From a virus (taxonomy: Duplodnaviria; Heunggongvirae; Uroviricota; Caudoviricetes): a DNA stretch of 12,568 nucleotides. Positions within the stretch are counted from its first letter, which is position 1. Every line of letters begins with the position of its first letter. This document shows, one piece after another, positions 2,441 to 12,568 of this stretch. The translations under genes and the position numbers were made by a program. The notes under the pieces are model-generated. The model saw only the letters and a list, made by a program, of their open reading frames with translations. It had not been told where the DNA came from and did not search any database. Location: the IMG/VR virus record IMGVR_UViG_2740892115_000002; one strand, written 5' to 3'.

Positions 2441-2670
2441 CGGGTCCTTCCTGGAATTATGGCCCGTTACGGGGCGGCGACCTCGCGGTTTTTCGCTATT
2501 TATGAGATTTTTTGAGGGGGTGGTTGTTGTTTAATTGTTTGGTATATCTAATTGATAAGTAAGGTAAAAATAAAATAAATACAACAACCTTACGATGTAT
2601 TTTGATGTCATTAATGTGAAAAAATTCAATGATATCAAATGGTTTTGTAAAAACACATGGTTGTTGTATC
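2441..2670 (+). other. cos-like site A (rightward orientation): lambda-type cosN plus GGTTGTTGT repeat set
   Basis: 2462-2487 gcccgttacg|gggcggcgacct|cgcg matches the lambda cosN and 12-nt cohesive end GGGCGGCGACCT as I recall it (core 2472-2483), followed by TTTTTCGCTATTTATGA as in the lambda left end. Inward repeats GGTTGTTGT at 2522-2530 and 2659-2667, inverted ACAACAACC at 2581-2589, with AT-rich spacers. Confidence 0.6.
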
Positions 2671-2844
2671 GCGTATTTGATGGCGTAACAGAAAGTGATT
2701 TTTAACTTTACCGCTCTGTAACTACGGATTATTCCATGCTGGCACGGAGAACGGCTACGGCATGACGCCACCCAGCCTATACAGAACAGTAAAGCCGATA
2801 AATTGTTAATCACGCGCAGCAATGCGTGTGATTTTTGCACACTT

Positions 2845-3038
2845 CCGGTTAACGGGTACGATGTCCGGTTTTAGTGTCTGTTTTTTGCGCATGTCCGGTT
2901 CATAGAAAGCATGTTTTTATATTTTTCATATGGTTAACTTGCAGAGAAACCGGACATGGATCCCGGAAAATTTTCATAAATAGTGAAAACGCGCGAGGTC
3001 GCCGCCCCGTAACGGGCCATAATTCCAGGAAGGACCCG
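2845..3038 (-). other. cos-like site B (leftward orientation): lambda-type cosN plus ATGTCCGGTT repeat set
   Basis: Read on the minus strand from 3038: cosN (core 2996-3007), then CGTTTTCACTATTTATGAAAATTTTCCGG, which is nearly identical to lambda sequence just inside cosN from memory. Then ATGTCCGGTT-type repeats at 2948-2957, 2891-2900 and 2861-2870 in a direct/inverted/inverted pattern, spaced roughly 50, 105 and 135 bp from cosN, reminiscent of lambda R3/R2/R1 with an AT-rich stretch between. Confidence 0.65.
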
Positions 3039-3039
3039 T

Positions 3040-3062
3040 AAAAAAGCCGGATTTCTCCGGCC
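3040..3062 (-). terminator. Rho-independent terminator after the late-type operon
   Basis: Stem gccgga/tccggc (3047-3052 / 3057-3062) with loop tttc. On the minus strand it is followed by a 7-U run (plus-strand A-run 3040-3046). Lies immediately after the stop of the 137-aa ORF. Confidence 0.7.
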
Positions 3063-3067
3063 TTGTC

Positions 3068-3481
3068 TCAGATGGTTTTCAGTATGCGATCGATGTCGCC
3101 GTCATCGCCCTGGTTTCTGCCATCGTATGCCATGCCAGCTGATACGGCTTGCGGGCTGTGCATGTCCATAAAGTTTTCAAAGGCTGCGGTAAGCTCTGGT
3201 GCAACCTTTGGGCGCTCCTGCTCTATGGTCATGTTCAGGATTTCACGAGCATTATCGACGCTAATACATGGCACGTTTGCCATTGCACGTAACAGCGGCT
3301 GATAGTCTTTATGCTCATGAAGCGCCATAATCGCATCAGCGCGCGGCTTGTCCTGCTCTTCCAGTTTGTTTAGTTGATATACGGCCTCATAGGTTGATAA
3401 ACCTCTGTCAGCCATTGCCCGCGCTTCGGCTTTAAATTTACTCGCCAGCGGTAGCGTCATGATGCTTTCATTCGTTGCCAT
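3068..3481 (-). CDS. Hypothetical 137-aa protein, last gene of the capsid operon
   Basis: ORF 12 nt downstream of the gpD-like gene on the same strand, followed by the terminator. No family recognised. Confidence 0.55.
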   Translation of the reverse strand: MATNESIMTLPLASKFKAEARAMADRGLSTYEAVYQLNKLEEQDKPRADAIMALHEHKDYQPLLRAMANVPCISVDNAREILNMTIEQERPKVAPELTAAFENFMDMHSPQAVSAGMAYDGRNQGDDGDIDRILKTI

Positions 3482-3493
3482 CGTTCCCCCTGC

Positions 3494-3829
3494 TTATCGG
3501 GCCAGCGGCTGAACGGATACGCCGGAACCCGCAAAGGCGGCGCATTTTTTCGCATCGGTGTCGACGCTCTCAGGCCAGTTAACGGCGGCAATATTGAATA
3601 TCCCCGTCTTGTAACACTGTGCTGATTTCTGCTTTGACGTGTCCACAGGGTACGAGGTCAGATAAACAGCCTTGCCAGATTCCTTACCATCCCACGGCTT
3701 AAACTCGCCATTGTCCGCCAGCATCAGCGGGGTAAATTCCTGAATAACGCCAGCATCAGCGGCAAAATGTACCAGCGTCGTGGCGACCTGCTGACTGCCT
3801 GCAAATAACTCAATGTATGGAGTGTCCAT
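3494..3829 (-). CDS. Head decoration protein, lambda gpD-like (111 aa)
   Basis: Size and motifs resemble lambda gpD from memory: TPLMLAD, WDG, YKTGIF...WPE, KKCAAFAGSGVSV versus lambda TPLMLD, WDG, YKSGTF...WPE, KKRTAFAGTAISIV. Confidence 0.75.
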   Translation of the reverse strand: MDTPYIELFAGSQQVATTLVHFAADAGVIQEFTPLMLADNGEFKPWDGKESGKAVYLTSYPVDTSKQKSAQCYKTGIFNIAAVNWPESVDTDAKKCAAFAGSGVSVQPLAR

Positions 3830-3840
3830 AGAATCCCCCG

Positions 3841-4896
3841 TTAACCAATTTTGACGGTAACAAATTTGCGAATATCTGCCGGAACCGGCTGCGGTGCGCT
3901 GTGCGTCTGCACGTACTCAATCGCCGGATCGCCGTCCTCAATCCAGTTTTTCGGGTAAAACATGTTTTGCGTTGCGCCCGTTCTTACTGCGTCCTGATCC
4001 ATAATCGCACCATAGGCCACCAGCCCTTTATTGTTGGTGTTGCCCAGGACAAGCAAATCAGGCTCAAGGAAATATTTTTCTGTGCCGTCGCTGTCAGTGT
4101 ATTTGCCGGAATAGACGATAAGGGCAATATCGCCCAGATAGCCTTTAAAGCTCACCACTTCGCCCAGGTTTTTACAGGCCAGCTCTGCGGCGGACTCTGA
4201 ACCACGGGAAAGATCGTACAGCTCACGGAATTTTTTAAAGCTGCGTAACGTTCGCCATACCTCAGCGCCCATAATCATGACGTTTGCGGGGCAACCAGCC
4301 TGATCGGCGTATAGTTCGATATCATAGATTGGATCGTGGGTTTCTTTGTCCTGCTCTGACCATTTTTTCCCGTCGGCCTGCTCTATGATGTTTTTTTCCG
4401 GTATCTTCCAGTCGATTTCATAGCGCTCTATGCCTTCGCCTTCAATGATGTTTTTTCCGGTCGTTACCGCATTTACCGCCAGCCATTCCACGCGCGCTTT
4501 TATGGCGTTTATCTGGCGGCGCATATTGCCAGTAATCAGGCGCATACGGCGATAGGTAGGGTCGTTAAGCTGTGCCGGATCTTCTCCAGCCATGCGCATG
4601 ATGGTTTTCGTTGGATCGATTTCGTGCTTTGGCTTCATGTAGCCAGGTTTAATCGTGCTGGTTTCGTACCCTTTATCGCGCTGAACCTGGCTACCCACCA
4701 TAGGCGAACAAAACGCCGACATGGTGACTTCTTCAATGTCCAGGGTATCCAGCATGATGTTTTGCGTGCTGAATGTCGCCACGTTCGGGAAAAACAGCGT
4801 GGTAAACAGCGGACTGAATTTAAATTCCGCAATATCCCCGCGATTCAGGTACGCAAAAAGCTGGTTAGTGTTAAGTGCCATTGCTTTTACTGTCAT
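3841..4896 (-). CDS. Major capsid protein, lambda gpE-like (351 aa)
   Basis: Multiple conserved blocks shared with lambda gpE as recalled: FKFSPLF..LFF, KPGYMKPKHE, EDPAQLNDPTYRRMR, WSEQDKETHDP, RGSESAAELACKNLGEVVSFKGYLGDIALIVYSGKY, VLGNTNNKGL.AYG, YPKNWIEDGDPA, SAP. Start overlaps the upstream ORF stop (TAATG). Confidence 0.88.
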   Translation of the reverse strand: MTVKAMALNTNQLFAYLNRGDIAEFKFSPLFTTLFFPNVATFSTQNIMLDTLDIEEVTMSAFCSPMVGSQVQRDKGYETSTIKPGYMKPKHEIDPTKTIMRMAGEDPAQLNDPTYRRMRLITGNMRRQINAIKARVEWLAVNAVTTGKNIIEGEGIERYEIDWKIPEKNIIEQADGKKWSEQDKETHDPIYDIELYADQAGCPANVMIMGAEVWRTLRSFKKFRELYDLSRGSESAAELACKNLGEVVSFKGYLGDIALIVYSGKYTDSDGTEKYFLEPDLLVLGNTNNKGLVAYGAIMDQDAVRTGATQNMFYPKNWIEDGDPAIEYVQTHSAPQPVPADIRKFVTVKIG

Positions 4897-5102
4897 TATT
4901 CACCCCCGTGAACCTGATTCATACCCAGCGCCGCGCGTAAATAGGCGCGTACCTGCCAGCCTGTTGACGGCTCAACCATCGCCAGCGGATCAAGTCCTGC
5001 CGCAATGCCTGCTTTTACGTTCTGCTGGTGGCGTTCCTTGAGCGCCTTCACGATGTCGGGGCTTATGTACACCGAAATACCGCCTTTTTTCTCTTCAGCC
5101 AT
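4896..5102 (-). CDS. Hypothetical 68-aa protein, first gene of the capsid operon
   Basis: AGAGGAA Shine-Dalgarno-like sequence upstream of the ATG at 5102. Stop overlaps the capsid start by 1 nt, suggesting translational coupling. No family recognised. Confidence 0.5.
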   Translation of the reverse strand: MAEEKKGGISVYISPDIVKALKERHQQNVKAGIAAGLDPLAMVEPSTGWQVRAYLRAALGMNQVHGGE

Positions 5103-5137
5103 AGTAAGAAATTCCTCTTTGACTTAAAAAATCATAA

Positions 5138-5187
5138 CTGGATGTTCATCCAGCTCTGATTATAATCAGGATTGCATTTTGTGCAAT
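5138..5187 (-). promoter_or_regulatory. Candidate late-operon promoter overlapped by three adjacent palindromes
   Basis: Palindromes ctggatg-tt-catccag (5138-5153), ctgattataatcag (5156-5169) and attgca-ttttg-tgcaat (5171-5187). On the minus strand, TATAAT (5164..5159) with TTGCAC about 16 nt upstream (5186..5181), placing a start site about 50 nt upstream of the ATG at 5102. Confidence 0.45.
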
Positions 5188-5265
5188 GATATTGAGTTGT
5201 GTTGCAAATTATGAAATGATTATCCCGATCATGTGTGTCAGTGCACCAAAAAGCCTCATATGCAA

Positions 5266-5305
5266 AAGCCCGATAAGCCACCTCTGACCTTATCGGGCTT
5301 TTTTA
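5266..5305 (+). terminator. Plus-strand rho-independent terminator with no annotated plus-strand gene upstream
   Basis: Stem aagcccgataag / cttatcgggctt with an 11-nt loop, followed by TTTTTTAT on the plus strand. Confidence 0.5.
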
Positions 5306-5469
5306 TCTGCCTGCAAAGATGTCGAACAAAAATTAACCACAACCATCATCTTTTTTGCATCAAAACAATTAAAAACAATAAATTACGCTCATGATGATGA
5401 TGACGATAAAATCACAAAAATGCGCTTTTTTCCGCGCTTCCCGCCCCGTGTTCAGGCCCACCCCGCCAG

Positions 5470-5492
5470 GAGGACCCGTAAAAAAGCCGGAT
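5470..5492 (-). terminator. Rho-independent terminator after ssb
   Basis: Stem gccgga/tccggc with loop ttgc, followed on the minus strand by a U-run (plus-strand A-run 5470-5476). Nearly identical in sequence to the terminator at 3040-3062. Confidence 0.7.
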
Positions 5493-5517
5493 TGCTCCGG
5501 CTTCTGTCTCTCGTCGC

Positions 5518-5940
5518 TTAAAACGGTATGTTATCCCCGTACGGATCATCATTCCCCGCCTGTTGTTTTGCCCTGTTCAGCGCGTCAGTAGCCTGGCCCT
5601 GTTGACCTTTTTTGCCGCCCAGTCGCGCCGTTCGCGCACTGATTACACTGTCTGCGATAACCTGCCAGCCCTGCCGCGTTTCTCCGTTCTGCCCAGTCCA
5701 CTGGCTGATCTGCATGTTACCCGCCACGCTCAGGAGTTCACCCTTGCGGTGCCTTTCCAGTGCTTCGGCCTGTCTGCCAAATGCCAGGACGGATAACCAC
5801 ATCGTCGCCGTTCCGTCATCTGCCTGGCTGCACGGAAGGGGGACCGCCATACGCGCCAGCGTCATCGGTGTGCCCTTGCTGGTCTGTTTTACCTGCGGGT
5901 CGTCCACCAGCCGCCCGTAAGCTGCTATCTGTGCTGTCAT
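5518..5940 (-). CDS. ssb: Single-stranded DNA-binding protein (SSB-like, 140 aa)
   Basis: OB-fold-like N-terminal region with SSB-like blocks (LSVLAFGRQAEALERHRKGELLSVAGNMQISQWTGQNGETRQGWQV), Gly/Gln-rich linker, and acidic C-terminal tail ending DDPYGDNIPF, comparable to the DDDIPF tail of E. coli SSB. Confidence 0.8.
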   Translation of the reverse strand: MTAQIAAYGRLVDDPQVKQTSKGTPMTLARMAVPLPCSQADDGTATMWLSVLAFGRQAEALERHRKGELLSVAGNMQISQWTGQNGETRQGWQVIADSVISARTARLGGKKGQQGQATDALNRAKQQAGNDDPYGDNIPF

Positions 5941-6215
5941 GATTCCACCTCTCCGGTTTTAACGTTGATGGTTGTTACCTGTTCCGCTTCGGCAATCTCC
6001 CGCTCTGTCAGCGTGGCAAAATTTGCCGCCGTCGTGGTCATGAATGCGCTTATCAGTTCGGGATGTGCTTTCGCGTATCCTTCCCCCGCGTGGCGGTCTA
6101 TCGTTCTGATTGCCACCTTTAAAGCGTGCTCTGTCATGTCTAACGCGCGATATTTCGGTTCTGTTCTGTCTCTGCGTTTTTTGAGTGATTTATTAAATTT
6201 CCCTGAAGTGTGCAT
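5937..6215 (-). CDS. Hypothetical 92-aa protein translationally coupled to ssb (start uncertain; internal Met at 6137 possible)
   Basis: Stop overlaps the ssb start (ATGA). Lies directly 3' of the iteron origin. No family recognised. Confidence 0.45.
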   Translation of the reverse strand: MHTSGKFNKSLKKRRDRTEPKYRALDMTEHALKVAIRTIDRHAGEGYAKAHPELISAFMTTTAANFATLTEREIAEAEQVTTINVKTGEVES

Positions 6216-6259
6216 ATTTATTTTTACCCCCTCGTTTAAAAAGTTTTGAGTTGTGCCTC

Positions 6260-6495
6260 CCCTTGTCTACCTTATCTACCTTAGTGGCCCTCATGCCAGT
6301 AATGGCGCGGCTTTCAGCGGGGTAGAGTGCTTTTATCCACTATCTACCCCGTGTCTACCTCCCTGTCTGATTCAGGTAAAATCAGGTAGAGAGGGTAGAT
6401 AGTGGGTAGACAGTAAAAAAAGGCTATCTACCTAACTTAATGCACTGAATTAAATGTATTTTTCTTTACTCAGGTAGACAGGGTAGACAGCAATT
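6260..6495. repeat. Replication origin-like iteron array (about 11 copies of the 7-bp unit TCTACC / GGTAGA in both orientations around an AT-rich core)
   Basis: gtctacc and atctacc at 6265-6280, ggtagag at 6321, atctacc and gtctacc at 6342-6359, ggtagag-ggtagat-ggtagac at 6386-6411, atctacc at 6426, ggtagac-ggtagac at 6474-6489, with an AT-rich segment at 6434-6471. Located immediately 3' of the primase-helicase gene, as in satellite and PICI origins. Confidence 0.7.
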
Positions 6496-6503
6496 ACAAA
6501 AAA

Positions 6504-8258
6504 TTATAAAAACGCGTCGCACTCGTCTGTTGTTATTGCGTTAGTCTGCGTTACCCCCTTAACTTTCCGCGTAATATATTCATGTCCGTAAACTTTTGCG
6601 GCAGGCTTCATAGCCTTTCCAAAGTCATTTACGTTTAGCGGTTTGCTCCTGCCTGCGTATGCCATAAACGCCAGATAGACGCGGTAAAGGCTGTTCCTGG
6701 TCGTGTACTTCACTGAATCGCCACCGCCCCCCATCATCAGGCCGCGCGCTTCCTCCAGAAAATTCAGGAACTGGCAAAACTCAATAACCGGATCCGTCTG
6801 TTGCTTTATTGCCAGTGCTTCATCACCGTCACGCTGTTCCAGTAGTAAAGCCCGTGCCTTCTCAGGGTCGGTAAAGTTCGCCAGCAATCGGCGGATAATG
6901 ACAGGGATTTCAGCCGCGATCTTTTCCGGTAGCTCCCTGTCTTTTTCGGCCTCACTGACGATATTGTCGAAACGGAAAATCACGCGACGACGTGCCACAC
7001 CTCCGGCCCGTTCGGTGAATATCATCGGGTTATTGTTGGTCGCCAGCACCACCGCCCTGATTACAGCCGTGAAACGCTTTTCGTATTTCGGGTTAATTTC
7101 CACGGGGTCACCGCCCGTGATTTTCTTGATGCCCGTTCCTTCGCCTGTATATTTCGGCTGGTCAGCCAGGACGATAAGACGACTCCCGACAACCTGCGCA
7201 CGTCCACCAGCATCATCAAGCGATGTCATTTCAGCGCTTACCGTGTTCTGTTTCCCTGCCAGAAGGCTGGCTATGTGCGTGAATGTACTTTTACCGCTCC
7301 CGCCGTCTCCGGTGGCCTCAATAAACATCTGCCAGTCGTACCGGTTCGCCATAATCATGTACAGCGCGGCACATATACGCATCATCTTGCGCGGGTCTTT
7401 TCCGGCTGCGTGCTCAAGCCATTTATGAAAGTTTGGCGCGTTATCGCGGATGTTCTCCCCTGGTGCTGGTGGCGTGTACTCAATGCCGTTGTGCGTGGTG
7501 ATCCAGTTCTCCGGCGTGTGCGGGGAAAATCCCCCCGTTTTCAGGTCAAGCGCACCATTGGCGAACGGCAGCAAATCGCCGGACGGCTCGCCCATTGGTT
7601 CGGCAATAACTTTTAACGCTTCCACGGCGTTATTGATTACGCGCTTGCTGAAAGTGGCCCTGTGCTCTGAATAGATCGCCACCATTTCGCGGCTAAGTTC
7701 CATTGTGCTGACCGGACACCATACCCCGCCGCGCCATACGTGAACGATTTCACTTTCAGGATGTACGCAAACGCCATCAAAGCGATCGGCAAGCAGCTGC
7801 GCGCGCTCACTGTCCGCCATCTGCGAAAGTTGCGCCTTTTGCTTTACCGGAAGCTCAATGACCAGACCATCAGAAAGATTCTGGCGCTCACGGGCCAGAT
7901 ATTCGCGCCAGTTCTCCACCTTCTGACCGTGCATACCATCAGGGTAAAAATTTGCATCCTGTACGCCTGCCGCCGCCAGCTTCTGGCCAATCGCCTTTAT
8001 CATTACTGGCGCAAGATATCCGGCCCTGAATATGCGCACGGATTTTCTGCCTTCCGGCACAATTTGCAGCTTATCCAGTTCTGATAACTGCTGCTCCCCA
8101 AGCCACACAGGAGGCTCATTATCTCCGGCCATACGCGCATCATGTTCCTGCCATTGTTTCGCGTGTGCCCAGGCATCACTACCCGCAAAAATAATGACTT
8201 CTGTTCCTTTGTGTTTTATGCCGCGTGACTGCTGTTTTACGTTCGGTGCCAGTTTCAT
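6504..8258 (-). CDS. Replication initiator, P4 alpha / D5-family primase-helicase-like (584 aa)
   Basis: Walker A motif GDGGSGKST and downstream D5/P4-type helicase-like blocks. Size and position (upstream of iterons) fit a pri-rep gene. AGGGG Shine-Dalgarno-like sequence; start overlaps the upstream ORF stop (ATGA). Confidence 0.8.
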   Translation of the reverse strand: MKLAPNVKQQSRGIKHKGTEVIIFAGSDAWAHAKQWQEHDARMAGDNEPPVWLGEQQLSELDKLQIVPEGRKSVRIFRAGYLAPVMIKAIGQKLAAAGVQDANFYPDGMHGQKVENWREYLARERQNLSDGLVIELPVKQKAQLSQMADSERAQLLADRFDGVCVHPESEIVHVWRGGVWCPVSTMELSREMVAIYSEHRATFSKRVINNAVEALKVIAEPMGEPSGDLLPFANGALDLKTGGFSPHTPENWITTHNGIEYTPPAPGENIRDNAPNFHKWLEHAAGKDPRKMMRICAALYMIMANRYDWQMFIEATGDGGSGKSTFTHIASLLAGKQNTVSAEMTSLDDAGGRAQVVGSRLIVLADQPKYTGEGTGIKKITGGDPVEINPKYEKRFTAVIRAVVLATNNNPMIFTERAGGVARRRVIFRFDNIVSEAEKDRELPEKIAAEIPVIIRRLLANFTDPEKARALLLEQRDGDEALAIKQQTDPVIEFCQFLNFLEEARGLMMGGGGDSVKYTTRNSLYRVYLAFMAYAGRSKPLNVNDFGKAMKPAAKVYGHEYITRKVKGVTQTNAITTDECDAFL

Positions 8259-8554
8259 TTTTTACCCCTGAATCCTTTAATCATGGTTTTCATCTTCTGA
8301 ATATTGGCGCGTGCTTTCTCCCTGCTGGTGGGCACGTTACGCGGTACGGCCTGCACAAGAGAAAAATCACGGTCGAACTGATAAACAGGCATCACGCAAT
8401 CATATTCGTAGCCTTCACGACGGTAGGTTACGCGCCGTTCCTCCACGCCCTTAATCATTACCGTGCCGCCGTACTTATCGCGGTAAATATCACCGCGCAT
8501 GAATTTAGTGCGAGTTTTGCCACTGGCAGTTAAGCCAGAATATTTAAGTTTCAT
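8255..8554 (-). CDS. Hypothetical 99-aa basic protein, translationally coupled to the primase gene
   Basis: ORF ending in an ATGA overlap with the primase start. Lys/Arg-rich. No family recognised. Confidence 0.55.
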   Translation of the reverse strand: MKLKYSGLTASGKTRTKFMRGDIYRDKYGGTVMIKGVEERRVTYRREGYEYDCVMPVYQFDRDFSLVQAVPRNVPTSREKARANIQKMKTMIKGFRGKK

Positions 8555-8559
8555 TATTT

Positions 8560-8793
8560 TTATTCTCCGGTGTGGGGCGCTTTATACTGGTCGTGTAATG
8601 TCTCTATTTCCTGCAACTCATTTATTACAGGCTCAAGAAGCGTTATTAATGCCGTGACAATCCTTGATTTCTGTTTATCACGTTCATTATCTCCAAGCGT
8701 TTCAAGACATATGCGCAATATTTCCAACATATTTTCACTGTGAGAAAGTGCAAGAAATGCGCGGTCTATTGTTTCGTGGTAAATATCACGCAT
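8560..8793 (-). CDS. Hypothetical 77-aa protein
   Basis: Tightly packed same-strand ORF in the operon upstream of the primase gene. Confidence 0.5.
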   Translation of the reverse strand: MRDIYHETIDRAFLALSHSENMLEILRICLETLGDNERDKQKSRIVTALITLLEPVINELQEIETLHDQYKAPHTGE

Positions 8794-8794
8794 A

Positions 8795-9229
8795 TTAATC
8801 CCCGTCCGTCGTTTTTCTTAAAATAACCTCTGTCACGAAATCAGCATAATCGGCGGCGATATTCAGTACATCAAGCCCCGTTGATTTATATTCTCTCGTG
8901 GAAAGTAAGAAAAAATCCGCTCTAATAAGCTCTGGCATTGACGAAAGCGCATCAGCCGCATCATCAGGAACGCCGGAAAATTCCTGTTTCAGGGAATTAA
9001 AACGATCATCACGCATAACCCCCCCATTTTCACAATCAGCAACAAGAATATTTTTAGCGTCATTCAGCGACCGCGTTGCGATGTATCGGATACATTCCAG
9101 GGCGAACTGTGTCCGGTCTTTCTGTTCTTCTCCCTGCGCAAGCTCTGCCGTGCATTCAATATCAATAAGCGCGTGCATCAGCGTAGTGAGTGCGGCGGCG
9201 GCTGCGTCCGGTGTGGTTTTATTGCACAT
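8795..9229 (-). CDS. Hypothetical 144-aa protein (the ORF extends to 9283, but a GGAGGGG Shine-Dalgarno-like sequence favours the ATG at 9229)
   Basis: ggaggggtacATGtgc context at 9229. This start overlaps the stop of the upstream 76-aa ORF by about 11 nt. Confidence 0.5.
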   Translation of the reverse strand: MCNKTTPDAAAAALTTLMHALIDIECTAELAQGEEQKDRTQFALECIRYIATRSLNDAKNILVADCENGGVMRDDRFNSLKQEFSGVPDDAADALSSMPELIRADFFLLSTREYKSTGLDVLNIAADYADFVTEVILRKTTDGD

Positions 9230-9449
9230 GTACCCCTCCGCATTTTTTTTCGTTAGAAATAAGCGTTCTTCTTTCCTGTTCATCGCTCAGGAATACGCAG
9301 ACCTCACCGCTAAGGCGTTTAAGTAAGCCGATGATTGCCCCTGATTCGCTGTCGGTCATCATGCCAGGGTAATCCTCTGCCAGTGCGCAAATAACTTCGA
9401 TTTGGTGGGCGCGTTCTGCTGCCTGTTGTAGTGTGATTTCCTGGCTCAT
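9219..9449 (-). CDS. Hypothetical 76-aa protein
   Basis: ORF whose start overlaps the stop of the upstream frame (ATGA at 9446-9449), part of the tightly coupled operon. Confidence 0.5.
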   Translation of the reverse strand: MSQEITLQQAAERAHQIEVICALAEDYPGMMTDSESGAIIGLLKRLSGEVCVFLSDEQERRTLISNEKKCGGVHVQ

Positions 9450-10732
9450 AAGCCTACCCCCTGACGAATACGGGCAGCAAATACCATCACGCAGCCAGCC
9501 GGAGATTGCTGGCGTGCTTCCTGTTCGCTGGTGGCCTCAATGGTAATCACGCGCGGTTGTGCCGTGCTCAGGGCGATAAAACGCCAGATGTATTTATTCA
9601 GGTTGTGCGAGTCCCGCCCTTGCGGGTGTGTGGTATGATTTAACATAGCTACCTCGATACTTTCGCTATCGTTGGTGGTTAGAAGCCCTGCGAGTGGTAA
9701 CGACACTTGCGGGGCTTTGCATTTATGCACCTTGATAATCTCAAGGTGTGGCCCACTATATGCTTTAGGTGTGGCCCACGTCAAGGGTTTTATTTGTGCT
9801 TTTTCTGTGTATACTGTCCCCCACCAATCCAACAGAGGAATAGAAATGGCAACGGGTACAACAAACGCAAAATCACAAGCTCTAAAGGCTCGTGTACCAC
9901 ACGAAATAGTAAACGCCATGGAATCAGTGAAAGAATCAGGCGAAAGCACATCACAATTCATCATTGCGTCAATGCAAGGCGAGATCAAACGCCGCCAGCG
10001 CCGCAAGGCCAAAGAGCAGGAGTAACCATCACCAGCGCCGTGGTGTGAGTAACTACGGCGCATTGCTATGCAGGACAACACAATGACCGATAAAGAATTG
10101 ACCAAAACATTATCACCGGCACGGAAAAGACGGCGCAGAAAGATAGAGCATGAATCAGAAAGATTCGCGCCATGTGCTTTTGCCCTTGAGCAATTCCTTA
10201 AAGAGTACAGGGAAAAGCGCTCATTGCAGGTATGGCAACGAACTGAACCTGACTGATTGCATTGCCCACCAGCCGCAAATGTGGCATTGTTGGCAATGCT
10301 CATGCGTTGGGGATAACGTGTAGCTTGTGTCGAGGGGCCACCGTAGCGGGTGGCCTTTGTTTTGCCCGTTATTCGGCAATTGTGGCGCTTCTCCACATGG
10401 TTGATATAATCCCACTGCTCAGATTCATTTTTTGCGCAGTAGGTTAATTGTTCACAAAGGCGCTCCGGCAACGGGGCGCTTTTTGTTTTTATTAGTTTGT
10501 AGAAACCTGACTCAGAGATAATGCTCATATTCTGATTGCCGTCAGGGGTGTAAGTTAAATTTACTCCCTTTTTATCATCAAACATCTGCAACGCTCTGGC
10601 GTTAACAATATTGGTTTCACTCCCGCCAGTAAGGCCGGAAATAACCGGAATAATTTCGGCAAAATTTTGCAGATTCTGTTTTTCAGGACGAACGAAGCCC
10701 CGCCCTTGTTCGGGAGAATATCCAGTATTCAT
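9446..10732 (-). CDS. Uncertain 428-aa open frame; likely a real N-terminal domain (about 115 aa from 10732) and/or a short C-terminal gene (possible start 9643, 66 aa), with the middle unlikely to be coding
   Basis: The N-terminal part has normal protein-like composition (NLTYTPDGNQNMSIISESGFYKLI, faintly like phage antirepressor N-domains). The central part is Cys/Arg/Ser-rich and antisense to two plus-strand small ORFs with good Shine-Dalgarno-like sequences. No in-frame stop until 9446. Confidence 0.3.
   Translation of the reverse strand: MNTGYSPEQGRGFVRPEKQNLQNFAEIIPVISGLTGGSETNIVNARALQMFDDKKGVNLTYTPDGNQNMSIISESGFYKLIKTKSAPLPERLCEQLTYCAKNESEQWDYINHVEKRHNCRITGKTKATRYGGPSTQATRYPQRMSIANNATFAAGGQCNQSGSVRCHTCNERFSLYSLRNCSRAKAHGANLSDSCSIFLRRLFRAGDNVLVNSLSVIVLSCIAMRRSYSHHGAGDGYSCSLALRRWRRLISPCIDAMMNCDVLSPDSFTDSMAFTISCGTRAFRACDFAFVVPVAISIPLLDWWGTVYTEKAQIKPLTWATPKAYSGPHLEIIKVHKCKAPQVSLPLAGLLTTNDSESIEVAMLNHTTHPQGRDSHNLNKYIWRFIALSTAQPRVITIEATSEQEARQQSPAGCVMVFAARIRQGVGL
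9744..9779. promoter_or_regulatory. Divergent control region with two direct 13-bp repeats AGGTGTGGCCCAC (9744-9756, 9767-9779)
   Basis: Repeats 23 bp apart in the intergenic region between the minus-strand small-ORF operon and the plus-strand RHH-like gene. A TATACT -10-like hexamer at 9811-9816 lies upstream of the plus-strand ATG at 9846. Confidence 0.5.
9846..10025 (+). CDS. Small ribbon-helix-helix-like DNA-binding protein (59 aa), candidate island repressor or regulator
   Basis: AGAGGAA Shine-Dalgarno-like sequence 5 nt upstream of the ATG. Sequence pattern of a beta-strand followed by two helices (KSQALKARVPHEIVNAMESVKE...STSQFIIASMQ) and a basic tail RRQRRKAKEQE. Family assignment is by pattern only. 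Confidence 0.5.
   Translation: MATGTTNAKSQALKARVPHEIVNAMESVKESGESTSQFIIASMQGEIKRRQRRKAKEQE
10083..10256 (+). CDS. Possible small basic protein (57 aa from the ATG at 10083; the ORF is open from 10068)
   Basis: AGGA 7 nt upstream of the ATG at 10083. Contains an RKRRRRK stretch. Weak support. Confidence 0.3.
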   Translation: MTDKELTKTLSPARKRRRRKIEHESERFAPCAFALEQFLKEYREKRSLQVWQRTEPD

Positions 10733-10784
10733 GGTTAGATCTCTGTATTAGTGGATGGGTGGCGGCTGTGTGCCGCCAGCCTGA

Positions 10785-10973
10785 TTAGTGAACTGCCTCG
10801 CAGCTGTCCTTCCATGCCAGAACTTCGGATAAAGACCAGCCAACGGAACGACCGCCCAGCTTACGCCGTGATGGGAATTGTCCGGCTTTTTCCAGGCGGT
10901 ACCGACATGAGCGGCTCAGGCCTGTAAGTTGCTGACATTCTTTTTCACGTATAAAGCGATCTGTGCTTAACAC
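10785..10973 (-). CDS. alpA: AlpA-family (phage Xis/MerR-like) transcriptional regulator, 62 aa
   Basis: Matches the AlpA pattern as recalled: LTGLSRSCRYRLEKAGQFPSRRKLGGRSVGWSLSEVLAW versus AlpA TG..R.TIY......FP....LG.KSVGW...EI..W. Position next to the integrase is typical. Confidence 0.75.
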   Translation of the reverse strand: MLSTDRFIREKECQQLTGLSRSCRYRLEKAGQFPSRRKLGGRSVGWSLSEVLAWKDSCEAVH

Positions 10974-11254
10974 AATTCCCCCTTTGTTGTTTCTTAAAGA
11001 GTCATTGGGTGGATTATTGGGTTGGGTTGTGTCGGATTGTGTCAGGGTGTTTGTGGAATGGCAAACACTGGCGGCGGTCGTTTTACAGAAGCAGGGGAAA
11101 TGAGAATAAAAACTCTTTTAATTCATTATGATGCAAAGGCATAAAATTTTACTTTTACGCCTTTTTTACATATTTTTAAGAGTGATTCGCCAGTGTATAA
11201 AAAAACAGTACACCTATAAAAATCAAATGGTTATTACGATGGCTGATTTTTAAC

Positions 11255-11313
11255 CCGTTGTTCCATTTTGTTCCTTGTTGTTCGTCGTTGTGTCTCGTTG
11301 TTTCACGTTGTCC
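11255..11313. repeat. Six tandem copies of a CGTTGT-containing unit at about 10-bp periodicity, directly 3' of the integrase gene
   Basis: ccgttgttcc / ttttgttcc / ttgttgttcg / tcgttgtgtc / tcgttgtttc / acgttgtcc, with units starting near 11256, 11267, 11277, 11286, 11296 and 11306. A related GT-rich set (ggttgtgtc, gattgtgtc) lies at about 11025-11055 near the alpA 5' region. Confidence 0.6.
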
Positions 11314-11338
11314 GCATCCTGAAAAATCGCAAAAAAAA

Positions 11339-12568
11339 TTATATTTCTCTGGCTATTGGCAATGTGGTTACGTTTTCATGTGTTCCCGCCAGTATCCCTA
11401 ACCGCTCCGTCCACATATCCAGCGCGTCACGTTTCGCATCCAGATAACGGGAATGGTTATAGACTCGTTGCATCCCTGGCATCTGATGACCTGTAAGCTG
11501 CTCCACGACGTGAGGATCCACGCCTAAATCGTTCAGCATCGTTGTAAAGGTGCGCCGGATGTCATGCAGTGACCAGTGAGGGTGTTTTAGCCTCCTGTGC
11601 GCTAATCTGCCGTACTGCGACACGCTTGTTTCCTGTTTCACTTCCCCCAGCAATAAGCCCGTGTGCCTGTTCTGCTCCACCAGCTGCGTGACGAACGGCA
11701 GTATTGCTTCCGGTATGGGCCGGAATATTGCCACCTTCGTTTTGCTGTGTTCTTTCGGCACGGTCCAGAGCATTTCGGTAAAATCCCACTCGCTGATCTC
11801 CGATAACCTCAGTTCTACCGTCCGGCATCCGAAAACAATCAGGAGGCGGATTAGTGCGACGTAGTAAGGGGAAAATATTTTTTTGTCCAGTGCCTGCAAT
11901 AATTCGCCAAGTTCTTTGGTGCTTAAGACGCGCTCGCTTATATCCGGTTTTTTCCCAACGTCCGCCACACTCATATCATCAAGAACGTTGCTGATTGCAT
12001 AGCGCCGCCTCCGGCAGAACTTAAGCGCCTGTTTGCACGTCTGTAGCAAGAATCCGGCAGTAACAGGCGTTCGCTTTGCCACCTGGTCAAAACAGGCCAG
12101 CCAGTGCCGTAGCTCGCATTTATCCAGCGGCATAGCACCAATGTGCTGTATTACGTGATTATTAAGGCGCTTTTTCAGGGCGGCATAATCCACGCGGTTT
12201 TCCTTTGCGTACGACTCAAGCCAGTAGGTGAGCGCATCGCCAACCGTTACCGGCTTTAACGCTTCCTGTACGGTGTAATTCATTTCATGACGTGGATTTT
12301 TCCCCTCTGCCAGCCATGCGCGACACTGGGCGGCTTTTTCCCTGGCTGATTTCAGGCTCAGATCAGGATAATTTCCCAGCTTAATGCGTTCCGGTGGTGC
12401 CCCCCTTCCCGTTCCGGCCCTGTAAGTGAAATACCAGGTTAAAAGGCCACTGGTTGAATGCCTGACGCTCAGGTTTCCACCGTCATTAAGAAAGGCTGTT
12501 TTTTGGGCGGGTGTGCCGTTGATTTTCCTCAGCTGTGTATCGCTCAGTTTGTTAAGTGCTCTGCTCAT
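11339..12568 (-). CDS. int: Tyrosine recombinase, P4-type integrase (409 aa; start codon at the window edge)
   Basis: N-terminal arm-binding-like region typical of P4-family integrases (DGGNLSV...W.F.YR......R..LG.YP..SLKSAREKA...AWLAEGKNP). C-terminal catalytic region includes HDIRRTF and HxxR...Y (RVYNHSRY). The start lies on the last base of the window, so an upstream in-frame start cannot be excluded. Confidence 0.9.
   Translation of the reverse strand: MSRALNKLSDTQLRKINGTPAQKTAFLNDGGNLSVRHSTSGLLTWYFTYRAGTGRGAPPERIKLGNYPDLSLKSAREKAAQCRAWLAEGKNPRHEMNYTVQEALKPVTVGDALTYWLESYAKENRVDYAALKKRLNNHVIQHIGAMPLDKCELRHWLACFDQVAKRTPVTAGFLLQTCKQALKFCRRRRYAISNVLDDMSVADVGKKPDISERVLSTKELGELLQALDKKIFSPYYVALIRLLIVFGCRTVELRLSEISEWDFTEMLWTVPKEHSKTKVAIFRPIPEAILPFVTQLVEQNRHTGLLLGEVKQETSVSQYGRLAHRRLKHPHWSLHDIRRTFTTMLNDLGVDPHVVEQLTGHQMPGMQRVYNHSRYLDAKRDALDMWTERLGILAGTHENVTTLPIAREI

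Follow-up and report, generated by a model that had tools for sequence, protein, structure and literature searches.

A predicted divergent promoter-terminator unit beside the capsid operon of an EcCICFT073-type phage-inducible chromosomal island

Phage-inducible chromosomal islands (PICIs) of the EcCICFT073 type are carried by approximately one-ninth of complete Escherichia coli genomes, including Nissle 1917 and CFT073. The IMG/VR record IMGVR_UViG_2740892115_000002, a stretch of 12,568 nucleotides (nt) referred to here as the window, contains such an island. Between its early ssb operon and its capsid operon, both on the minus strand, lies a strong hairpin with a T-run that is oriented on the plus strand (hairpin 1). 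Together with P_anti, a predicted plus-strand promoter upstream of it, hairpin 1 on balance probably forms a divergent non-coding unit of approximately 78 nt, which would insulate the early operon and might also compete with the capsid-operon promoter, P2. The promoter-terminator cassette is unannotated, and the literature searched describes no RNA at this locus. Located beside the capsid promoter, the cassette provides a concrete piece of the control region for capsid formation and packaging, either as a competing promoter with a built-in insulator or as a regulatory RNA. Its parts are as follows.

5192-5220, plus strand: P_anti, predicted sigma-70 promoter, with -35 TTGAGT (5192-5197), a 17-bp spacer and TGaAATGAT (5212-5220)
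approximately 5227-5304, plus strand: predicted non-coding transcript of approximately 78 nt, starting approximately 7 nt past the P_anti -10 and ending at the T-run
5264-5304, plus strand: hairpin 1, intrinsic terminator by sequence, a perfect 14-bp hairpin followed by T6

Hairpin 1 and its orientation

Hairpin 1 consists of an A-run (5264-5267), the left arm GCCCGATAAG (5268-5277), an 11-nt loop CCACCTCTGAC (5278-5288), the right arm CTTATCGGGC (5289-5298) and six T residues (5299-5304) followed by AT; the plus strand from 5264 to 5306 thus reads AAAA-GCCCGATAAG-ccacctctgac-CTTATCGGGC-TTTTTT-AT. The stem has a GC-rich core of 10 bp that can be extended to 14 bp. As plus-strand RNA it folds at -20.3 kcal/mol, compared with -7.6 +/- 2.4 for shuffled sequences (z -5.36; 0 of 200 shuffles equal). 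The window was also scanned for single hairpins followed by T-runs, using a tail score in the style of d'Aubenton-Carafa. The core of hairpin 1 gave -14.6 with a tail score of 4.69, and hairpin 1 and 10456-10490 were the best compact canonical plus-strand terminators in the window. An automated terminator scan of the window did not list hairpin 1, probably because its 11-nt loop exceeds the 8-nt limit of that scan. The hairpin also folds as minus-strand RNA (-24.3 kcal/mol), but there only TTTTGCAT comes after it (tail score 3.29). The U-tract of the plus-strand RNA has six residues in the window and seven in CFT073 and O157. By these sequence features, hairpin 1 is a plus-oriented Rho-independent terminator.

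No credible plus-strand open reading frame (ORF) terminates at hairpin 1 in the ORF list or in the alignments, and a 53-amino-acid (aa) ORF on the plus strand (5233-5394) reads across it. The first-pass annotation, made from the letters of the window, had described a strong plus-oriented hairpin and T-run with no plus-strand gene, and both parts of that description hold, the ORFs being judged spurious.

Conservation across relatives

The stretch 5222-5306 was found in 595 of 5426 complete E. coli genomes, with no annotated feature among the matches listed (40 records). Variation close to the window was sampled from 80 IMG/VR loci whose capsid gene is 94-100% identical, which reduce to 29 distinct versions of the region from the -10 to the T-run (E. 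coli type I). Across these unique variants the stem of hairpin 1 is invariant and the loop is variable (CCACCTCTGAC, AACCCTCTGAC, ATGCCTCCTGTA, CTTCCTCCTGTA, CCCCCTGTGAC and others), and the body upstream of the hairpin takes at least three unrelated forms. Type-I conservation alone indicates only that the stem is constrained. Approximately 25 other E. coli genomes (type II) retain the promoter and operator block and carry, in the place of hairpin 1, an unrelated hairpin, AAATCCCCCGG-aacctcat-CCGGGGGATTTTTTT(T); GCGCAC comes next, and then a minus-oriented hairpin that is likewise unrelated.

More distant loci were collected through capsid homologues of 65-69% identity from Salmonella enterica, Edwardsiella tarda and metagenomes. 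Six lineages can be compared in this way, namely the two E. coli types, Salmonella, Edwardsiella and two metagenomic lineages (L116 and L117). In the distant loci the order is a ribosome-binding site (RBS) GTCAAAGAGG, usually a CTG-N10-CAG box, a TTGCxx-16-TATAAT minus-strand promoter, TTGCA-type palindromes, and a GC-rich hairpin with a plus-strand run of T6-T9 located 63-91 nt past a plus-strand promoter-like site. Six unrelated stems occupy the same position (GCCCGATAAG, TCCCCCGG, CCCGCCAG, GCCCCCC, GCCCCAG and GCCCA), with arms CCCGCCAG/CTGGCGGG in Salmonella, GCCCCCC/GGGGGGC in Edwardsiella, GCCCCAG/CTGGGGC in L116 and GCCCA/TGGGC in L117. The plus-strand tail scores higher than the minus-strand tail in all six lineages, mostly 4.3-5.9 versus 2.2-3.3. 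Such turnover of the hairpin sequence with position and orientation retained is as expected of a functional plus-strand terminator, and hairpin 1 looks to be maintained by selection. A predicted promoter on the same strand, separated from the terminator by no credible ORF, together with the conserved positions of both in six lineages, is the pattern by which a small RNA (sRNA) gene may be recognized; a short non-coding RNA, an insulator or both, as initially proposed, is its natural reading.

A facing minus-oriented hairpin accompanies hairpin 1 in four lineages (E. coli types I and II, L107/L111, and L116). No plus-oriented terminator was found in L106 (Lelliottia), L108-L110 or Sakai Sp7, and the conserved control block is missing from these loci as well. 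Among GTDB representative genomes the capsid protein query was unproductive, and a 20-base operator pattern gave chance matches only.

Every version of the predicted RNA folds with a small stem-loop at its 5' end, then an A-rich linker and finally the terminator. Two single-sided changes bear on the strand that is transcribed. One turns A-U into G.U in the hairpin of L038 (RNAalifold), and the other gives U.G in place of U-A in the 5' stem-loop of L039- and L060-type variants (read from the sequences). Either change still pairs, as G.U, in a plus-strand RNA, whereas a minus-strand RNA would have a C.A mismatch; both are thus compatible only with pairing in a plus-strand RNA. In the Salmonella lineage, the 5' stem-loop contains one compensatory change from U-A to C-G (four sequences).

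Predicted promoters and the control region

Promoters were searched with a simple -35/-10 position weight matrix (PWM). P_anti has an extended -10, composed of TG at 5212-5213 and AATGAT at 5215-5220. The site at this position is the top plus-strand PWM match in five of the six sequences first examined; in CFT073 it is the second-best plus-strand site, its score weakened by AATGTT. P_anti is kept in 45 of 46 unique E. coli-type promoter blocks, where TTG of the -35, A2 and T6 of the -10 and the upstream TG are constant and the -10 varies at less critical positions (AATGAT, AATTAT, AATAAT, AATCAT). Conservation ceases a few bases past the -10, at the start of the mosaic body. Homologous sites are TTGACT or TTGATT-17-AATGAT in Salmonella-like loci (AATTAT in L115) and TTGTTC-17-TGcAATAAT in Edwardsiella. 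The homologue in L116 is weaker (TTGATA-17-AATAAG, 7.0 bits, third-ranked plus-strand site), and the best plus-strand promoters of L117 differ from P_anti. The predicted RNA measures 70-92 nt over the E. coli variants and 63-91 nt over the lineages.

A plus-strand start near 5170 and an RNA of 100-150 nt had been suggested initially. The upstream control region does contain a predicted plus-strand promoter, but the best-conserved transcription start site (TSS) lies at approximately 5227. The longer RNA fits a second candidate promoter, TGGATG-16-TATAAT, with a TSS at approximately 5173 and an RNA of approximately 132 nt, whereas the best-conserved promoter gives approximately 78 nt. The second candidate is among the top three sites only in E. 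coli type I, L107/L111/L115 and L116; in type II, L101 and Edwardsiella it falls outside them, and the type II palindrome has TTTAAT. A symmetric bidirectional promoter at TGATTATAATCA was considered as the source of the conserved RNA and rejected, as its plus-strand -10 is without -11A in type II (TTTAAT).

Three further elements make up the rest of the control region.

5159-5186, minus strand: P2, predicted capsid-operon promoter, TTGCAC (reverse complement of 5181-5186), a 16-bp spacer and TATAAT (reverse complement of 5159-5164)
5171-5187, no strand: palindrome ATTGCA-N5-TGCAAT, overlapping the P2 -35, a putative operator between the two -35 elements
5138-5153, no strand: LexA-box-like palindrome CTGGATGTTCATCCAG (CTG-N10-CAG), covering the predicted start of the capsid operon

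P2 scores 10.7 bits, is kept in 45 of 46 blocks and has a predicted TSS at approximately 5152, giving a predicted capsid leader of 5152-5102 (minus strand). In CFT073, c1498-c1501 are reported to be induced together when the temperature is shifted to 37 C (PMC12890032), in keeping with an independent operon that begins at P2. On the predicted starts, the plus-strand RNA (5227-5304, or 5173-5304) and the leader do not overlap, and the initial proposal of an RNA antisense to the capsid leader has to be given up; any antisense overlap of the predicted RNA would be limited to read-through transcripts of the early operon.

P_anti and P2 stand back-to-back with their -35 hexamers 5 bp apart, and occupancy of the two promoters by RNA polymerase should therefore be mutually exclusive. 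E. coli types I and II and the Salmonella lineage retain the ATTGCA-N5-TGCAAT palindrome, and Edwardsiella has it in duplicate; a third TTGCAA half-site is present at 5202-5207. A CTG-N10-CAG box occurs at the same position as CTGGATGTTCATCCAG in the Salmonella lineage, L116 and L117 and is absent from E. coli type II and Edwardsiella. Both half-sites of CTGGATGTTCATCCAG are CTGG, not CTGT. A consensus LexA box, CTGT-N8-ACAG, is found in Lelliottia L106 (CTGTATGAAAAAACAG). These LexA-like boxes suggest that the capsid operon may be under SOS control, with P2 as the promoter so regulated. SOS control is known for operon I of the Staphylococcus aureus pathogenicity islands (SaPIs). In minus-strand sense, the CTGGATGTTCATCCAG box and a U-rich stretch also resemble a terminator (site at 5131 in our own scan).

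Proposed function and points against it

In the preferred reading, P_anti would start plus-strand transcription and hairpin 1 would end it, keeping it from entering the ssb/replication operon in the antisense direction. With hairpin 2, the predicted terminator of the early operon, hairpin 1 would insulate the early operon and the capsid operon from each other in both directions. The main effect of the unit may be that P_anti competes with P2 and holds the capsid operon silent, rather than one exerted by the RNA sequence. Conservation of the promoter and terminator without conservation of the body leans in the same direction, towards the act of transcription (competition and insulation) over the RNA sequence.

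Several points weigh against this reading. P_anti has a moderate score of 8.2 bits (9.7 with the TG bonus) and ranks joint eighth among all sites of the window on both strands; the conserved block could alternatively be an activator site or an UP site for P2. The type-I hairpin contains no compensatory change among 14 pairs (RNAalifold), its stem never varying, and the compensatory pair of the Salmonella 5' stem-loop is not significant, being reached by 129 of 500 shuffles. The A4 tract 5' of hairpin 1 means that the hairpin could also act on the minus strand. The two tails are near-equal in L117 (5.6 plus versus 5.1 minus), and the plus-strand T-run of L115 is degraded or displaced. The lineages share ancestry, and six lineages are not six independent trials. 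A literature search found no transcript data for this locus, no description of an RNA there and no mention of the hairpin sequence.

Alternative explanations

The leading alternative, which we consider unlikely, is that the plus-strand RNA is a sequence-specific regulator whose anti-Shine-Dalgarno motif pairs with the capsid-operon RBS GUCAAAGAGG, or with a helper or host mRNA, and blocks translation. CCUC-type motifs are exposed in the loop or linker of four of the six lineages, namely in the linker (G/A)CCUCAUAUGC and loop CCACCUCUGAC of type I, the loop AACCUCAUC of type II, the loop GCCUCCUCUUGACG of Salmonella and the 5' loop GCCUCCCUC of L116. The sequence AGCCnCCTCT(T)GAC is common to the type-I and Salmonella hairpins despite their different stems and is complementary, with a bulge of 1-2 nt, to the conserved RBS GUCAAAGAGG, which precedes the first gene of the capsid operon. 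Across mosaic bodies, the 15 nt immediately 5' of the hairpin remain conserved; a 5' stem-loop, an A-rich linker and a terminator with U6-9 are typical of sRNAs; and the arrangement resembles constitutive divergent sRNAs that guard LexA-controlled genes. However, predicted duplexes between the RNA and the RBS of the 68-aa ORF did not surpass those formed by shuffled RNAs (p 0.05-0.7), and no other target was found among the translation-initiation regions of island genes. The body is not conserved between lineages and is rich in insertions and deletions even inside type II, Edwardsiella and L117 do not have the motif, and the motif was noticed post hoc. The complementarity of the CCUC motifs to the RBS is a lead only.

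In the second alternative, likewise improbable and placed behind the first, no meaningful plus-strand RNA exists and hairpin 1 backs up hairpin 2 in a tandem or bidirectional arrangement, blocking read-through into the capsid operon. The greater stability of hairpin 1 as minus-strand RNA, followed by U4, is consistent with this, as is its position immediately downstream of hairpin 2 (in the minus direction) in most relatives; the tails of L117 are equally good, and in Salmonella L101 hairpin 1 is the only hairpin after the upstream gene. However, the plus-strand T-run is longer in every lineage, and in type II and Salmonella the minus-strand tail is merely TTTCAC or TTGTGT (score 2.2-2.5). In a minus-strand RNA the single-sided G.U changes would leave C.A mismatches, and a back-up role leaves unexplained the conserved plus-strand promoter signature 63-91 nt upstream.

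An extension of the regulatory alternative is more speculative than either of these. Under it, the locus would be a family-wide sRNA gene of EcCICFT073-type PICIs in Enterobacteriaceae, divergent from an SOS-controlled capsid operon, whose RNA holds an anti-Shine-Dalgarno clamp on the first capsid-operon gene (or on helper-phage mRNAs) until induction. If this were true, the clamp sRNA would constitute an IstR-like safety circuit in a phage satellite.

Very improbable is a role as a structural or recombination element, such as a module-junction scar or a cos accessory, rather than as a transcription signal. A mosaic breakpoint (5304/5315) falls directly after the T-run, and sequences of the hairpin-2 type stand at several module junctions, including upstream of two cosQ sites. 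However, EcCICFT073 and most relatives have hairpin 1 without an adjacent cos, phage cos regions are without hairpin 1, and sequence turnover that keeps a GC stem and a T-run is the signature of a terminator and not of a protein-recognition site. That hairpin 1 ends a small-protein gene, the 33-aa ORF at 5186-5287 (plus strand), is scarcely credible: although several variants have an open frame beginning with ATG at the homologous position, the ORF has no Shine-Dalgarno sequence, its length changes between lineages (33, 26 and 16 codons across variants), it accumulates non-synonymous changes between relatives (these make up most of the differences between the window and the O157 copy), its start lies upstream of the best-supported TSS, and the internal ATG at 5231 is lost in O157.

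Comparison with known systems

IstR-1 and AgrB of E. coli are constitutive sRNAs that diverge from the LexA-controlled genes beside them, tisB and dinQ. The predicted unit is similar in that a short RNA with its own promoter and terminator diverges from a transcription unit with a LexA-type box at its start. In contrast, the first gene of the capsid operon does not encode a small hydrophobic toxin, the sequences are unrelated, no significant complementarity to the neighbouring mRNA was found, and both the RNA and the LexA site are predicted here. The OOP RNA of lambda is 77 nt long, has its own promoter pO and a terminator, and is transcribed opposite to cII-O, antisense over the 3' end of cII. 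As with OOP, the predicted unit is self-contained, approximately 77 nt long, encoded on a mobile element against its flanking operons and closed by a strong intrinsic terminator; unlike OOP, the predicted RNA overlaps no annotated gene or predicted transcript, and the two are not homologous. A separate paper is devoted to OOP (PMC5869508). A precedent for a satellite-encoded sRNA is provided by the Vibrio cholerae satellite PLE, for which a preprint using an RNA-RNA interactome describes an sRNA that affects satellite and helper gene expression (bioRxiv 10.1101/2022.04.08.487710). PLE belongs to another satellite family and host, and its sRNA has no sequence or positional relationship to the RNA predicted here.

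The early region of the island is P4-like, with a P4-family primase, an Icd-like protein, an AlpA-type regulator and an integrase, and RNA-based immunity of phage P4 had been cited as a precedent in the first-pass annotation. The CI RNA of P4 arises by processing of the early leader transcript and works through premature termination. In contrast, the unit described here is a separate promoter-terminator cassette beside the capsid operon, and the analogy finds no support in Rfam: at E <= 1, Rfam 15 gave no match at the locus, with C4/CI, IsrK and prophage sRNAs included, and no family of the C4/CI type matched anywhere in the window. PasB, an sRNA of enteropathogenic E. coli (EPEC), was also tried as a candidate and rejected, the PasB probe giving no match.

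Face-to-face terminators are normally found between convergent genes. The locus resembles such an arrangement, with two GC-rich hairpins that have outward A-runs and inward T-runs and lie 6 nt apart in most relatives. It differs in that the flanking operons are co-directional and the plus-oriented member has no annotated gene to terminate.

The facing terminator and an inserted cos module

Two further features of the intergenic region, hairpin 2 and a cos insertion between the hairpins, go beyond the first-pass annotation.

5480-5501, minus strand: hairpin 2, predicted terminator of the early (ssb) operon, GCCGGA/TCCGGC with a 4-nt loop and T6
5315-5484, minus strand: phage-type cos module ('cos3'), exactly between hairpins 1 and 2

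Hairpin 2 (GCCGGAttgcTCCGGC at 5486-5501, with a plus-strand A-run at 5480-5485) folds at -15.4 kcal/mol (z -4.4). The gap between the hairpins is 6 nt in CFT073, O157 SS17 and most relatives (T7-GGGCGC-A6), and the junction in CFT073, O157 and O26 reads ...CGGGC-TTTTTTT-GGGCGC-AAAAAA-GCCGGATTGCTCCGGC..., followed by a perC-family gene and then by ssb. By sequence, the usual arrangement is thus a pair of face-to-face terminators 6 nt apart between two co-directional operons. A BLAST comparison with 5426 E. coli genomes showed that the gap is mosaic, with a breakpoint at 5304/5315. On one side, 5103-5304 (control region and hairpin 1) is common to the EcCICFT073, O157 and O26 islands at 90-97% identity.

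On the other side of the breakpoint lies the cos module. It comprises a cosQ-like sequence ACGGGTCCTCCTGG (reverse complement of 5466-5479), a cosN-like sequence ACGGGGCGGGAAGCGCGG (reverse complement of 5432-5449) and approximately 120 bp on the cosB side. Its minus strand aligns with lambda cosQ, cosN and the start of cosB (window ACGGGTCCTCCTGG...ACGGGGCGGGAAGCGCGGAAAAAAGCGCATTTTTG versus lambda ACGGGTCCTTTCCGG...ACGGGGCGGCGACCTCGCGGGTTTTCGCTATTTATG). In VT1-Sakai and several Stx2 phages, unannotated DNA immediately before terS matches the module at 87-91% identity; the equivalent position of mEp460 matches it at approximately 77%. It appears to be a third cos site of non-lambda type; a first guess, that it was an sRNA common to Stx phages, was replaced by the cos reading. 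The version with the cos insert is found in approximately 167-169 of the 5426 E. coli genomes. The module is absent from EcCICFT073, and perC is absent from the island of the window. A third cos site could allow packaging of the island by another group of helper phages. The facing terminator pair looks like a 'safe harbour' in which new modules can be accommodated without disturbing either operon, the newcomer in the window being a cos site of the Stx-phage type.

Several module junctions carry a hairpin of the type AAAAAA-GCCGGA-nnnn-TCCGGC. Such hairpins follow ssb, perC or pchE, and they also stand immediately before two cosQ sites, where the junction is identical (TTTTTTACGGGTCCT). They are located at 3030-3051 and 5480-5501 of the window and at approximately 12065-12085 and 12410-12430 of L020. 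They may act as terminators and, in addition, provide short stretches of homology through which islands and phages exchange modules. In Lelliottia L106 the intergenic region before the capsid operon also contains a lambda-like cos (...AAAATTTTCATAAATAGCGAACCCGTGCGAG...), positioned as the cos insert of the window is but set in an otherwise unrelated control region.

The island and its genomic setting

The window contains an EcCICFT073-type PICI inserted between phoQ and roxA. Several E. coli chromosomes match positions 4800-5800 at 100% identity; for Nissle 1917, ATCC 25922 and clone D i14 the figure is 98%. EcCICFT073, the published satellite of CFT073, is inserted at the same site and shares the layout (Fillol-Salom et al. 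2018, PMC6092414). The genes, taken from the RefSeq annotation of one matching genome, are all on the minus strand.

Minus strand: integrase, AlpA-type helix-turn-helix regulator, Icd-like protein, DUF4222
Minus strand: P4-family primase, ssb
Minus strand, capsid operon: 68-aa ORF, major capsid protein (gpE family), head-decoration protein, two more ORFs

A gap of 415 bp extends from the ssb stop (5518) to the first codon of the 68-aa ORF (5102); hairpin 1 lies in this gap and separates the early operon from the capsid operon. The assignment as a PICI is based on the RefSeq annotation of a near-identical locus and on CFT073 itself. The annotated reference locus is 99.9% identical to the window over 2961-12568 and 97.6% identical over phoQ, with divergent or rearranged sequence between. 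The island has an integrase, an AlpA-type regulator, a primase/replication module and lambda-type cos sites, is approximately 11 kb long, uses a specific attachment (att) site and has no full virion module. The two lambda-type cosN sites are located at 2472-2483 (plus strand) and 2996-3007 (minus strand), as described for EcCICFT073 (PMC6092414). No intact gene for Rpp (redirecting phage packaging) was found in the island of the window: 2711-2776 (minus strand) encodes only the last 22 residues of the 144-aa inter-cos protein of CFT073, which is presumably Rpp from its expected position between the cos sites. Between the inverted lambda-type cosN copies, 2513-2961 is in part inverted and in part an AT-rich replacement relative to CFT073 and HM670.

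The same phoQ-roxA att site holds a different island in O157:H7 Sakai, Sp7 (L020; record 1594711-1610171), which is a capsid-forming PICI with portal, protease, terS and terL. Its early region is similar (integrase, primase, ssb, pchE), and its late module and control region are different. By sequence comparison, Sp7 shows that whole late modules are exchanged downstream of the hairpin-2 terminator. Transcript data from O157 Sakai are of no use for the present locus, since Sp7 occupies the att site there without hairpin 1.

The sole Rfam match in the window is mir-135 at 6336-6417 (minus strand; 23.9 bits, E 0.3), which is spurious. It overlies inverted short repeats of the GTCTACC/TCTACC type between the primase gene and the next ORF, and similar repeats occur in L106. 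Replication origins of PICIs have been reported between the primase gene and the next ORF (PMC6092414).

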